Positions 1-4,325 of a stretch of 4,535 bases of DNA are shown here, in pieces. Made by a program: the position numbers and the translations under genes. Source of the stretch: a virus. Its lineage: Duplodnaviria; Heunggongvirae; Uroviricota; Caudoviricetes. A model generated the notes under the pieces. The model was not told the DNA's origin. It did not search any database and was given only the letters and a program-made list of their open reading frames with translations. Numbering within the stretch: position 1 is the stretch's first letter; each line of letters opens with the position of its first letter. The DNA lies in the IMG/VR virus record IMGVR_UViG_2667527584_000004; one strand, written 5' to 3'.

Positions 1-325
1 CGGCAAGAGTCAGTAATTGTCCCTGGTCTTCCTGCAGAATAGTCAGGCGACCACCGCGATTGACATACATCGGCGTTTCGGTGGTGTCTTCTTCGGAAAT
101 TTTCCCGCGGTTAGTCGGACGAACATATGAGAGTTTGTGTTTTATTTTCACACGGTTCTCATCAAACGGTTCGATTTCCAGGTTGAGCGAGACCTTACCT
201 TTGGTTTTCGTGTTCATCACACCGGAAGCGACTTCACTGAGAACTGCGCCGATTTTGGTTTCAAATACGCCGCCGTCCAGCTCCCCGATAAATTCCTGCA
301 CGTTGGTACTGCGTTCGCTAGCCAT
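1..325 (-). CDS. Hypothetical prophage early-left protein; N-terminal ~108 codons only, gene continues past the window start
   Basis: Minus-strand reading frame open to the window edge, so absent from the ORF track. ATG at 325-323 with GAGGAG (338-333) 7 nt upstream. Translation begins MASERSTNVQEFIGELDGGVFETKIGAVLSEVASGVMNTKTKGKVSLNLEIEPFDENRVKIKH. Family not recognised. Confidence 0.7.
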   Translation of the reverse strand, partial: MASERSTNVQEFIGELDGGVFETKIGAVLSEVASGVMNTKTKGKVSLNLEIEPFDENRVKIKHKLSYVRPTNRGKISEEDTTETPMYVNRGGRLTILQEDQGQLLTLA

Positions 326-373: not shown

Positions 374-462
374 ACAAAACAGAGAAGAACACCTGCGGTG
401 GCAGCCGCCCGGGTGGATTGGGTTATGAGCCCGTCGTCCGGTGATGCTCTTCTCTGTTTTGT
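374..462. repeat. 15-bp perfect inverted repeat (ACAAAACAGAGAAGA at 374-388, TCTTCTCTGTTTTGT at 448-462) around a 59-nt GC-rich spacer
   Basis: Read directly from the sequence; the arms are exact reverse complements. Confidence 0.8.
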
Positions 463-508
463 AAAAAGAGCGGTACCAGCCGGAAGCAAGGGTACAAGCT
501 GGTACCGC
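461..508 (-). terminator. Candidate intrinsic terminator for leftward transcription
   Basis: 11-bp perfect GC-rich stem (470-480 GCGGTACCAGC pairs with 498-508 GCTGGTACCGC) with a 17-nt loop. On the minus strand the stem is followed by TCTTTTT (469-463). No T-tract follows it on the plus strand. The loop is long for a canonical terminator. Confidence 0.45.
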
Positions 509-793
509 CAGGACTACACACAGCATAAAGTTGTGGTGCCGGGTGCCTCCCGGTGCCTGGCGAAGGTTGCACACCAGGCGGGTGGGTATCCACAGAAGGT
601 CGACTGTCAGCCTCAACCTTAACCCGCGTGCGCTGAGCCGCATTCACCACAACGCTAAGGATTCTCTCTGGTTGAAAATACTTAGCTGTTATGTGCCTGC
701 TTTTAGCCACATCAGGCGAGGTGGGCCTGGTTATTCCCCAACAACAAGGATTCGGCTAATCTGGATGACTCTGTTCTTAGAGGGGATAATTAA

Positions 794-1306
794 ATGGGAG
801 CGATTTATGTTAAACGTTTGATTCTGTCGGTAGCACTGATAATACCGATAGCATCCAATGCTTCTGATGCTTTGAACCAGCCGAGCAGTAGTCTAAATGA
901 TGGTGTTGAGACTTTTTTTATTTCCTGCTTTGATATGCCTCAGGAAACAACTACTGATATGGACGCTTGTCAGAGAGTTCAGTTAGCTCAGGTTAGTTGG
1001 GTTAAGAATAAGTATTCGGTGGCCGCCCTGAATCGTTTGAAACAAGACAACAAGGATGATCCACAGCGTCTGCAGGAATTAACTGCTTCTTTTAACGCGG
1101 AAAGTGAAGCTTGGACAGAATTAATTGAGAAAGCGTCAAAGTCCGTCCAGGTTGATTATGCAGGAGGAACTATAGCTGGCACTGCAGTTGCATCACGTCA
1201 AATTGGTCTTCTGGAATTACAATCCCACGATATCTGGGAGCACTGGCTACGATTCGAGGACTCAACTCCTCCTCTTTTGCCAGAACCAAAGTTCAAATCT
1301 GAGTAA
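794..1306 (+). CDS. Secreted/periplasmic protein with Sec signal peptide; tentatively DUF1311 (LprI lysozyme-inhibitor-like) family; prophage moron
   Basis: 170-aa ORF. ATG at 794 with GAGGGG 9-14 nt upstream. N-terminus MGAIYVKRLILSVALIIPIASNA then SDA has the n-region, hydrophobic core and AXA cleavage site of a signal peptide. Double stop TAATAA, then a terminator. GC content clearly lower than flanks. Family assignment rests on a remembered motif pattern (Cys pair near N-terminus, AW...YAGG segment). Confidence 0.8.
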   Translation: MGAIYVKRLILSVALIIPIASNASDALNQPSSSLNDGVETFFISCFDMPQETTTDMDACQRVQLAQVSWVKNKYSVAALNRLKQDNKDDPQRLQELTASFNAESEAWTELIEKASKSVQVDYAGGTIAGTAVASRQIGLLELQSHDIWEHWLRFEDSTPPLLPEPKFKSE

Positions 1307-1360: not shown

Positions 1361-1441
1361 CTAACGAATCATCCTGGACTTCATATGCCCCAGGCGGCTA
1401 CTTCGTGGGCGTCCTGCCTGTTTGTTGTTTCTCTTGGGTAC

Positions 1442-1469
1442 ATTATGTATCTCAAAGGTACATTGTCAA
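1442..1469 (-). promoter_or_regulatory. PL-like leftward promoter
   Basis: Minus strand: -35 TTGACA (1469-1464), 16-nt spacer, -10 CATAAT (1447-1442). An operator overlaps the spacer. Confidence 0.6.
1446..1462. promoter_or_regulatory. OL-type operator TGTACCTTTGAGATACA (one mismatch from TGTAC-N7-GTACA)
   Basis: Same 17-bp dyad as the two perfect sites between the repressor and cro-like genes. An extra TGTACC half-site lies at 1441-1436 on the minus strand. Confidence 0.5.
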
Positions 1470-1508: not shown

Positions 1509-2183
1509 TTAGGCTTTGATTTTGTATCTTCTTGGTTTTCCTGAGAAAATCACAGTACCAATTATAGAGCAATTACCGTTGATCTTAATGTAAGGCTCAG
1601 GCCAGTTTGGGTTTAACGCTTTGAGATAACGCTGTGTCCCATCTTCTATCAACCTTTTGAAGGTGGTTTCACCTGTATCGTGCATCAATGCAATAACGTC
1701 GTCACCGTGGCAGGCAGGTACTTCAGGATCGACAAAAATCATGTCTCCCGGGCGGTACTCATCAATCATTGAATCACCTATCACCCGCAAGATATAAGTC
1801 ATTTCCCCACAGGGTACAGGGCAGGGATACGTTTCTGCTGTGCTCAAATCAACCTCAGAATATCCAACTTCTTTCCATGCTCCGGCCTGTACCCATGATA
1901 TGACAGGGACTAATGTGATTTGTTTATTAGTGATTGAAACATCAGGTTTTTTTGTGATGTTCGTTGTCTGGTGTTCTTGATCGAGCCATCCGACAGGCAG
2001 GTCGAAACATTTTTCGATGTGTCGTGCCATGCTGTCACCGATATTTTTAGTAGCACCATCTCCCATAAACCTGCTGGTCTGGGTTGGCTCGCGATCAATC
2101 ATAGTGGCAAAGGAAGAATTCCCGCCAACACCATCTCTCAGTTTTCTGGCGTTAGACCGCCGGATGTCATGGATTGTTTTCAT
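1509..2183 (-). CDS. cI: CI-type prophage repressor (N-terminal HTH, C-terminal S24 LexA-like autopeptidase domain)
   Basis: 224 aa. C-terminal half carries the S24 signatures: VQAGAW (Ala-Gly cleavage site), ILRVIGDSM (catalytic Ser), TFKRL (catalytic Lys), and a VDPEV...LKALNPNWP...INGNCSIIG pattern resembling P22 C2 / lambda CI. Divergent from the cro-like gene across an operator region. Confidence 0.92.
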   Translation of the reverse strand: MKTIHDIRRSNARKLRDGVGGNSSFATMIDREPTQTSRFMGDGATKNIGDSMARHIEKCFDLPVGWLDQEHQTTNITKKPDVSITNKQITLVPVISWVQAGAWKEVGYSEVDLSTAETYPCPVPCGEMTYILRVIGDSMIDEYRPGDMIFVDPEVPACHGDDVIALMHDTGETTFKRLIEDGTQRYLKALNPNWPEPYIKINGNCSIIGTVIFSGKPRRYKIKA

Positions 2184-3404: not shown

Positions 3405-3424
3405 AGGTCGGTCATGAGCACTAA
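3245..3424 (+). CDS. Small phage protein, DUF4222-like (tentative), TTG start
   Basis: AGGAG (3232-3236) 8 nt upstream of TTG 3245. Translation [59 protein letters not shown] fits a remembered DUF4222 pattern. Overlaps the O-like start by 11 nt. Below the ORF-track length cut-off. Confidence 0.5.
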
Positions 3425-4325
3425 ATTAACCGGCTATGTATGGGATGGTTGCGCTGCGTCAGGCATGAAGTTATCCAGCGTGGCAATTATGGCCCGCCTG
3501 GCTGATTTCAGTAATGACGAAGGTGTGTGCTGGCCATCAATTGAAACCATTGCCCGCCAGATTGGCGCGGGGATGAGTACCGTCAGAACGGCTATCGCAC
3601 GGCTGGAAGCAGAAGGCTGGTTAACGCGTAAGGCGCGTCGCCAGGGTAACCGCAATGCGTCGAATGTTTATCAGCTTAACGTTGCGAAGCTTCAGGCAGC
3701 GGCATTTTCTCAACTGTCAGATTCTGACCCGTCAAAATTTGATGCGTCGAAATCTGGCAAAAAAGCGGGTTTTCACCCGTCAGAATCTGGCGGGGATCCG
3801 TCAGTAAAATCAAAACATGATCCGTCAGATAAAAAAACTTCTCGTCCGGACGCTTCGCAACCGGACACGCAGACGGCTGAACAGGAGTTTTTAACTCGCC
3901 ATCCTGATGCTGTTGTATTCAGCCCTAAAAAGCGCCAGTGGGGAACGCAGGATGATTTGACCTGCGCACAGTGGCTCTGGAAAAAAATCATCGCCCTGTA
4001 CGAGCAGGCTGCCGAATGTGACGGCGAGGTGGTTCGTCCCAAAGAACCGAACTGGACAGCCTGGGCAAACGAAATTCGCCTGATGTGTGTGCAGGATGGT
4101 CGTACTCACAAACAAATCTGCGAGATGTACAGCCGCGTCAGCCGCGATCCGTTCTGGTGCCGTAACGTGCTCAGCCCGTCGAAGCTGCGGGAAAAATGGG
4201 ATGAGCTTTCCCTGCGCTTATCGCCGTCCGTAAGTACGTACACCGAAAAACGCGAGGACCCGTACTTCAAAGCCAGTTACGACAACGTGGACTACAGCCA
4301 GATCCCGGCAGGATTCAGGGGGTGA
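3414..4325 (+). CDS. Replication initiator, lambda O-like (N-terminal HTH, iteron-encoded linker, C-terminal domain)
   Basis: 303 aa. GAGG (3403-3406) 7 nt upstream. N-terminal winged-helix-like segment SIETIARQIGAGMSTVRTAIARLEAEGWL. The central low-complexity DPS-rich linker is encoded by DNA direct repeats, the hallmark of ori-lambda-type origins inside O genes. Confidence 0.9.
   Translation: MSTKLTGYVWDGCAASGMKLSSVAIMARLADFSNDEGVCWPSIETIARQIGAGMSTVRTAIARLEAEGWLTRKARRQGNRNASNVYQLNVAKLQAAAFSQLSDSDPSKFDASKSGKKAGFHPSESGGDPSVKSKHDPSDKKTSRPDASQPDTQTAEQEFLTRHPDAVVFSPKKRQWGTQDDLTCAQWLWKKIIALYEQAAECDGEVVRPKEPNWTAWANEIRLMCVQDGRTHKQICEMYSRVSRDPFWCRNVLSPSKLREKWDELSLRLSPSVSTYTEKREDPYFKASYDNVDYSQIPAGFRG
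3714..3836. repeat. Iteron array, probable phage replication origin within the O-like gene
   Basis: Six copies of a CCGTCAGA-type core starting at 3714 (CTGTCAGA), 3729 (CCGTCAAA), 3744 (GCGTCGAA), 3777 (CCGTCAGA), 3798 (CCGTCAGT) and 3822 (CCGTCAGA), followed by an A-rich tract (3829-3837). Confidence 0.7.

Follow-up and report, generated by a model that had tools for sequence, protein, structure and literature searches.

A conserved hairpin and U-tract upstream of yfdP, the probable Rho-independent terminator of an STnc100-like RNA in an SfV-like prophage

The hairpin at positions 509 to 469 on the minus strand of an SfV-like prophage, together with the C-U5-AC tail that follows it, is probably the Rho-independent terminator of an STnc100-like RNA in the leftward early (pL) operon. 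This assignment, made from sequence comparison, draws on the anatomy of the hairpin, its homology to the STnc100 terminator, its conserved position, covariation in its stem, and its independence from the immunity type of the phage that carries it.

The stretch of DNA that we analyzed, here called the window, is 4,535 nt long (IMG/VR record IMGVR_UViG_2667527584_000004) and comes from a lambdoid, SfV-like prophage, of which it is the immunity region. A UTI89/IHE3034-type prophage matches it at 99.9% identity, and the Shigella phages SfV, SfIV, and SfII are close kin. All positions are those of the window unless stated otherwise, and the genes and control sites that frame the hairpin are as follows.

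1 to 324, minus strand: 5' part of yfdP (ORF reading, RefSeq annotation of the identical UTI89 prophage, PHROG 204)
1426 to 1462 and 2201 to 2267: five 17-bp operators, TGTAC-N7-GTACA (inverted repeats, position weight matrix [PWM])
1426 to 1442 and 1446 to 1462: the oL operators, overlapping pL (inverted repeats, PWM)
1442 to 1469, minus strand: pL-like promoter, TTGACA-16-CATAAT (promoter scan, 11 of 12 consensus matches)
1509 to 2183, minus strand: cI-like repressor gene, Peptidase_S24 (ORF and domain reading)
2274 to 2474: cro-like gene (ORF reading)
Rightward part of the window: cII-like gene, DUF4222 gene, and replication gene (ORF and domain reading)

In the pL operon, the hairpin belongs to the transcribed strand and has the orientation of cI, pL, and yfdP; pL is ~930 nt upstream of it, and yfdP starts ~140 nt downstream. 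The gene downstream of it, yfdP, is the first of the early-left operon yfdP-yfdQ-yfdR...int; in UTI89, the RefSeq annotation gives yfdP, then yfdQ and yfdR, and more genes up to int. The pL-like promoter is the likely source of the transcripts that reach the terminator, and the promoter scan found no strong sigma-70 promoter just upstream of the RNA body described below.

Other parts of the window differ from the relatives in ways that we record here. In the region from 758 to 1366, what looks like a moron cassette replaces SfV orf33. This region holds an ORF (794 to 1306, plus strand) that opposes pL and encodes 170 amino acids, with a signal-peptide-like N-terminus and a weak match to an LprI lysozyme inhibitor (PHROG 7681). 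A 24-nt inverted repeat (758 to 781 and 1298 to 1321) flanks this ORF, which has its own terminator (1332 to 1353). The replication (O-like) gene measures 912 nt in the window (3414 to 4325) versus 942 nt in UTI89 (9414 to 10355 of the UTI89 locus). The size difference and the BLAST match, which falls into two pieces, point to an indel of 30 bp, whose most probable place is the repeat-rich (iteron-like) middle of the gene. A C4 antisense RNA and isrK are found in the antirepressor region of SfV, mEp460, cdtI, and Stx2a_1447, and isrK is found in ST64B; the window lacks both and has other genes to the right of the cII-like gene.

The RNA elements of the leftward transcript are listed here in the order in which polymerase would reach them from pL.

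1371 to 1432, minus strand: ~62-nt RNA element (the pL-leader element), starting within a few nucleotides of the predicted pL start
510 to 683, minus strand: STnc100-like structured RNA body (covariance-model match, fold, homologues)
512 to 525, minus strand: single-stranded linker UGCUGUGUGUAGUC, 14 nt between body and terminator (alignment)
469 to 509, minus strand: probable terminator stem-loop (fold, STnc100 alignment, basal-stem covariation in 22 distinct sequences)
509 to 497, 496 to 482, and 481 to 469, minus strand: 5' arm, 15-nt loop, and 3' arm of that stem-loop (fold)
461 to 468, minus strand: tail of the probable terminator, C(468) UUUUU(467 to 463) AC(462 to 461) (sequence)
374 to 467, minus strand: long leader helix (inverted repeat, fold with z = -5.86, consensus structure of 15 sequences from many genera)

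Read as RNA, the hairpin is a 13-bp stem, made up of 11 Watson-Crick pairs (GCGGUACCAGC/GCUGGUACCGC) and two G.U pairs, that encloses the 15-nt loop; 8 of the 13 pairs are G-C. Its folding energy is -23.7 kcal/mol, compared with a mean of -13.2 for 200 dinucleotide shuffles (z = -4.4), none of which folded as well. The base of the stem and the tail together yield a boxA-like string, the minus strand from 472 to 461 reading CGCTCTTTTTAC, and the tail also opens the 5' strand of the long leader helix.

A motif search of the plus strand placed GGTACC at 472 to 477 and 501 to 506 and GGTACA at 491 to 496; the preliminary description of this DNA had given the positions of the inner GTAC of each. 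One palindromic GGTACC sits in each arm, and GGTACA sits in the loop. Because GGTACC is self-complementary, one copy in a perfect stem forces the other, and the two copies count as one event. GGTACA in the loop adds one more match, in a window that is generally rich in GGTAC. Hairpin, motifs, and boxA-like string are thus all present as first described, but while the hairpin exceeds chance, the three motifs do so only in part and the resemblance to boxA does not. Counted on either strand, GGTAC occurs 21 times in the whole window versus 4.9 expected under a first-order Markov model. Eleven of these belong neither to the operators nor to the hairpin (for example, 1717, 1754, 1813, and 1889, inside cI, and 2931, 3117, and 3162).

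The suggestion that the minus strand carries a terminator of the tL kind is supported by the anatomy of the stem and U-tract, by the alignment with the STnc100 terminator, and by compensatory changes across at least 12 genera. The stem is G+C rich and well over the 5 bp required, the U-run follows it after a single C, within the 0 to 2 nt allowed, and structure rather than sequence is conserved, all as in intrinsic terminators. The one departure is the loop, which at 15 nt exceeds the 3 to 8 nt typical of efficient intrinsic terminators. A consensus terminator scan that allowed loops of up to 8 nt passed over the hairpin for this reason. A loop of this length makes incomplete termination probable, and the terminator may be only a partial one.

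We then compared the locus among relatives. The segment from 330 to 510 is 95 to 99% identical in SfV, SfIV, mEp460, cdtI, and Stx2 phages, and in mEp460, cdtI, and the Stx2 phages the homology breaks off exactly at the 5' edge of the hairpin. The same module is present in 2,470 of 5,426 complete E. coli genomes (~46%). More distant loci were collected through YfdP homologues, with one genome per species, and from phage records, which gave 26 loci from at least 12 genera (Escherichia, Shigella, Salmonella, Citrobacter, Mangrovibacter, Atlantibacter, Franconibacter, Leclercia, Kosakonia, Phytobacter, Providencia, Scandinavium, and others). Every one of the 26 has a hairpin of -14 to -33 kcal/mol lying 100 to 170 nt before yfdP. 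In 25 of them 5 to 8 U residues directly follow the stem, the exception being Stx2a_1447, where the fold is off register. The arms of the relatives' terminators are separated by 13 to 40 nt, which often contain an inner hairpin.

The basal stem varies in sequence and keeps its pairing. Among 22 distinct sequences, whose arms were extracted by anchoring on the stem base, 7 of 10 pairs had changed on both sides and 91.4% of cells were paired, compared with 30 to 50% when the partner was slid by 1 to 3 columns; none of 500 shuffles reached the observed value. The stems include such different versions as GGUACCAG/CUGGUACC, GGCGUCUGA/..GACGCC, and GGCACC/GGUGCC, and that of ST64B is wholly different (GUCGGCGUC/GACGCCGAC) while its tail is the same (CCUUUUUACA). 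Since the shape is conserved together with the U-tract, we regard this as a terminator-like signature.

A group of distant relatives (L015, L016, L033 to L035, L038, and ST64B, L008) has an insertion in the terminator loop, with an inner hairpin CUUCC/GGAGG and a conserved GAUAAUGUUCUG. The latter reads as a Shine-Dalgarno sequence followed by an AUG or GUG start inside the terminator; the frames downstream are not conserved, and the window has no such insertion. In these relatives the insertion may represent a leader-ORF attenuator.

An Rfam scan of the whole window returned one significant match, to STnc100 (RF02076), at 683 to 461 on the minus strand. The match covers model positions 1 to 206 of 206 with 45.4 bits (E = 9.2e-08), which is 1.6 bits short of the gathering score of 47 bits, and we therefore call the window copy STnc100-like, a subthreshold relative of the family. 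In the Rfam alignment, the hairpin and its tail occupy the terminator helix and U-tail of the model. Independent folding gave the same architecture as the model, namely, a multihelix body with a long-range closing helix, followed by the terminator, and the whole 236-nt stretch folds beyond its shuffles (z = -4.55). The body has a closing helix (GUUGUGGUG/CACCACAAC) and a conserved hairpin (CACCGGGAGGCACCCGG), and homologous bodies are present in SfV, ST64B, 118970_sal3, phiES15, and P1.

STnc100 is known from prophages of Salmonella and E. coli (Rfam RF02076), and the window, too, is prophage DNA. It is a multicopy prophage small RNA, with eleven copies transcribed in enterohemorrhagic E. coli EDL933, one of them confirmed by Northern blotting (PMC5331693). 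One copy lies downstream of stx2 (PMC12370729, PMC12711010), and expression has been shown for copies other than that in the window (PMC5331693, PMC12711010). The family is considered to be related to PasD (bioRxiv 10.64898/2026.05.13.724894).

In phage P1, an STnc100-like core (model positions 31 to 147, 33.4 bits) lies at 2504 to 2623 of that genome on the plus strand, between upl and tciA, within the ban operon, whose orientation it shares; the P1-like phage-plasmids SJ46, RCS47, and JL22 also match. In a Buttiauxella locus (L017) and four viral contigs (L051, L061, L097, and L122), the body is fused directly to the ...UGUGGAG... of the yfdP leader, and terminator hairpin, U-tract, and long helix are all missing. 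The terminator is therefore dispensable in some phages, in which the body is a plain part of the 5' untranslated region.

The linker UGCUGUGUGUAGUC is nearly invariant in six relatives and is identical to the conserved segment of RprA that precedes the RprA terminator. This segment is presumably the second seed region of RprA. The phiES15 homologue gave a weak match to the RprA model over AUUGCUGUGUGUAGUCUUU.

We infer from this architecture how the element would work. Polymerase arriving from upstream would transcribe the G+C-rich stem, pause on the U-tract, and release the RNA at 467 to 461. The product would be a small RNA of ~220 nt with the stem and U-tail as its 3' end and UGCUGUGUGUAGUC as its last single-stranded stretch. 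Termination would also limit entry into yfdP-yfdQ-yfdR...xis-int. In transcripts that escape, the U-tract would fold into a 25-bp helix with the downstream sequence (374 to 467). The GGTACC pair is then a palindrome that serves to build the stem, and the boxA-like string is the junction of stem base and U-tract.

The pL-leader element raises the question of whether some transcripts are made to pass this point. It is nearly invariant in heteroimmune phages of Escherichia, Shigella, Salmonella, Citrobacter, Klebsiella, Yersinia, Pectobacterium, and Pantoea, an invariance that at positions 8 to 33 is partly forced by the search pattern and that the few hits found by similarity also show. More than 120 IMG/VR viral contigs contain an exact 26-mer of it, and in 59 of 93 contigs the terminator/long-helix module follows 0.3 to 1.8 kb downstream. 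There is strong covariation in its closing helix and in a hairpin of 5 bp, 98% of cells being paired in 72 distinct versions compared with 19 to 41% after sliding; the pair 37-54, for instance, is GC in 30, CG in 28, UA in 11, and AU in 3. Single-sequence folds were no stabler than shuffles (z = -0.36 and z = -0.25), so that covariation alone speaks for the structure. The element contains a seven-codon mini-ORF, MKSRMIR, and had no Rfam match in the scan of the window.

In position and size class, the pL-leader element agrees with putL of phage HK022 (PMC9378689). A BLAST comparison with HK022 gave no match, and the element has no sequence similarity to putL of HK022 or HK639; a BLAST search with HK022 putL recovered the known put family only (HK75, O276, phiEt88, HK639, and others). 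No second copy of the element was found downstream of pR, where a counterpart of putR would lie, with up to 3 mismatches allowed. We also considered the STnc100-like body as a put RNA and set it aside, since the Rfam STnc100 model found no match in the putL/putR region of HK022 and the body is thus not put by sequence.

By analogy, the terminator might nevertheless be the checkpoint of a protein-independent antitermination in which the pL-leader RNA modifies RNA polymerase like a put RNA, an idea that we hold to be doubtful. Transcripts from pL would then cross the antisense moron and the terminator at 509 to 461 and continue into yfdP...int. Those starting elsewhere would stop at the terminator and yield the small RNA, and the 25-bp helix that swallows the U-tract would separate the two products.

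That helix is the basis of a rather unlikely alternative to termination, in which the hairpin does not terminate and is the first half of a two-part leader, cut by a double-strand nuclease such as RNase III, that determines how stable the yfdP mRNA is or how well it is translated. In that case the hairpin would be no more than a protective 3' end left by processing. The helix has a 25-bp stem that pairs 467 to 443 with 398 to 374, so that UUUUUAC and the next 18 nt would be paired in read-through RNA, and it is capped by two small hairpins. In 15 sequences the U-tract pairs invariably with GUGGAGA, and there are compensatory pairs elsewhere, one of them C-G in 8, G-C in 6, and U-A in 1. An inner sequence, GACGGGCUCAUAACCCAAUCC, is almost invariant, Providencia keeps the arrangement despite an unrelated helix interior, and the scan of the window assigned the helix to no Rfam family. 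Relatives have hairpin, U-tract, and helix all together or not at all, the Buttiauxella locus and the four viral contigs lacking all three, and this joint gain and loss, like the invariable pairing of the U-tract, the covariation of the helix, and the length of the loop, fits a two-part leader. A duplex of 25 bp is long enough to be a substrate for RNase III. However, a run of 5 to 8 U residues right after the stem is found in every genus examined, and the helix would need merely U-A or U-G pairing there. The long helix cannot prevent termination, because its downstream arm is made only after polymerase has passed the U-tract. The two readings are also compatible. We keep the terminator and regard the helix as probably a processing or leader element, which may be an RNase III-type processing site. 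The U-tract does have a second role, as the 5' strand of the leader helix rather than as boxA.

The preliminary description had also suggested a nut-like element. On this reading the tail, CGCUCUUUUUAC, would be a boxA that with the hairpin forms a nut-like site, loading NusB/NusE, with or without a phage protein, onto polymerase. Within the pL operon, the transcribed strand carries the string CGCUCUUUU, which agrees with CGCUCUUUA at 8 of 9 positions. With one mismatch allowed, CGCTCTTTA has 3 matches in the window versus 0.82 expected, and the hairpin tail is one of the two imperfect ones; as ~0.8 one-mismatch matches are expected per window, the resemblance is at chance level. The first three bases of the string (CGC) are paired in the stem. 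The heptamer CGCTCTT is found in only 10 of 60 distinct versions, the others reading CGCCCTT, CGTCCTT, CGCACTT, CGACCTT, etc. The hairpin stands 5' of the motif and its 15-nt loop is unlike boxB, whereas 3' of the string there is no boxB and the 25-bp leader helix is found instead. The distance from pL is ~930 nt. No N-like protein was found among the window ORFs (Pfam), in the UTI89 prophage annotation, which lists a Q-type antiterminator only, or among small pL-proximal genes of relatives: in five relatives PHROGs gave no antiterminator family for these genes, and Pfam and PHROGs placed SfV orf33 and the small ORFs of YeP1, ZF40, AH07, phiES15, and 118970_sal3 in families of unknown function only. 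We consider a nut-like site very unlikely and dropped the boxA identity on the chance statistics and the lack of conservation.

The only exact match to CGCTCTTTA in the window lies elsewhere, at 1324 to 1332 on the minus strand. It is part of a 13-nt sequence, CGCUCUUUAACAA (1332 to 1320, minus strand), which contains CGCUCUUUA and lies on the pL transcript. This sequence presumably agrees with the rrn boxA at 12 of 13 positions, and it comes just after a hairpin, an order that we take to be rrn-like. It is located ~100 nt into the pL transcript and opens ~500 nt of untranslated RNA antisense to the ORF at 794 to 1306. It is specific to the cassette, occurring in 3 of 93 related viral contigs.

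The preliminary description had further suggested an extra repressor contact, which would make the GGTAC motifs an auxiliary low-affinity cI site, used, for example, for looping with oL or oR or to block transcription. GGTACA/TGTACC is indeed an operator half-site, and the enrichment of GGTAC in the window (21 versus 4.9) agrees with such a role. However, two of the three motifs are one palindrome imposed by the stem, and the region from 455 to 515 contains no dyad with the operator spacing (17-bp TGTAC-N7-GTACA). A PWM derived from the five operators gave the best 17-mer there a score of -0.8, the 68th highest in the window, while the true operators scored 16.5 to 22.7 (12.3 to 21.1 when each was left out in turn). 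The same hairpin is present in mEp460 and Stx2a_1447, although their repressors share only 21% identity with that of the window and their operators differ. In close relatives the loop GGTACA has become TGTACA or TATACC. Together with the 22 of 60 distinct versions of the hairpin that have no GGTACC, these results separate the motifs from the repressor; we think an operator extremely improbable and abandoned that identity on the PWM scan and the heteroimmune relatives.

Nor is the region likely to any appreciable degree to be protein coding with an incidental hairpin, even though a 49-codon ORF (489 to 340, minus strand) is listed and hypothetical proteins have been annotated there in several phage and RefSeq records, since the helix substitutions are compensatory, homologous segments measure 141, 143, 144, 145, 149 nt, and other lengths whose differences are not multiples of 3, the candidate frames vary among relatives, and RefSeq itself flags the ORF as a "frameshifted hypothetical protein."

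The hairpin is thus an ordinary element that can by most criteria be classed as an intrinsic terminator and would work like one, and it is neither a nut site nor an operator. The RNA elements in its neighborhood are more interesting than the terminator and are undescribed. One outcome is a correction to annotation, as proteins called "hypothetical" or "frameshifted" in RefSeq and in several phage records overlie a structured RNA and its terminator. Furthermore, the early-left operon of the SfV/ST64B type, from yfdP to int, lies behind at least one conserved terminator with no recognizable N-type antiterminator, which makes the expression of integration and excision genes in these very common prophages a concrete question. 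Finally, an STnc100-like RNA with a linker identical to that of RprA in an early operon offers a testable link between prophage induction and the small-RNA networks of the host.

Several known systems invite comparison. Like lambda nutL and nutR and the rrn boxA, the transcribed strand here carries a string, CGCUCUUUU, close to CGCUCUUUA (8 of 9), but it is partly paired and unconserved, the hairpin is in the wrong order for lambda, and neither a boxB-like loop nor N accompanies it. The pL-leader element is like putL of HK022 and HK639 in size class and in its position after pL and unlike it in sequence. The terminator itself recalls those of the lambda tL type: each has the anatomy of an intrinsic terminator, lies on the early leftward transcript past the immunity region and before the recombination and integration genes, and would have to be read through if int and xis are to be expressed from pL. 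In contrast to lambda, there is no recognizable N gene or nutL (boxA plus boxB) and no sequence homology, and the terminator of the window is at the same time the 3' end of an RNA element. That element shares with STnc100 the conserved core UGGUGAAU ... CACCGGGAGGCACCCGGCACCA and a location in prophages. It differs in that its homologues in SfV, phiES15, and 118970_sal3 score only 37 to 41, in its terminator loop of 15 to 21 nt compared with ~6 nt in STnc100, in the RprA-like linker, which is absent from the Rfam consensus, and in its place in the early-left operon upstream of yfdP, whereas the late region holds the copy downstream of stx2 (PMC12370729). The remainder of the RNA is unrelated to RprA, the Hfq-dependent small RNA of the host, but in both the linker UGCUGUGUGUAGUC stands directly 5' of the terminator.
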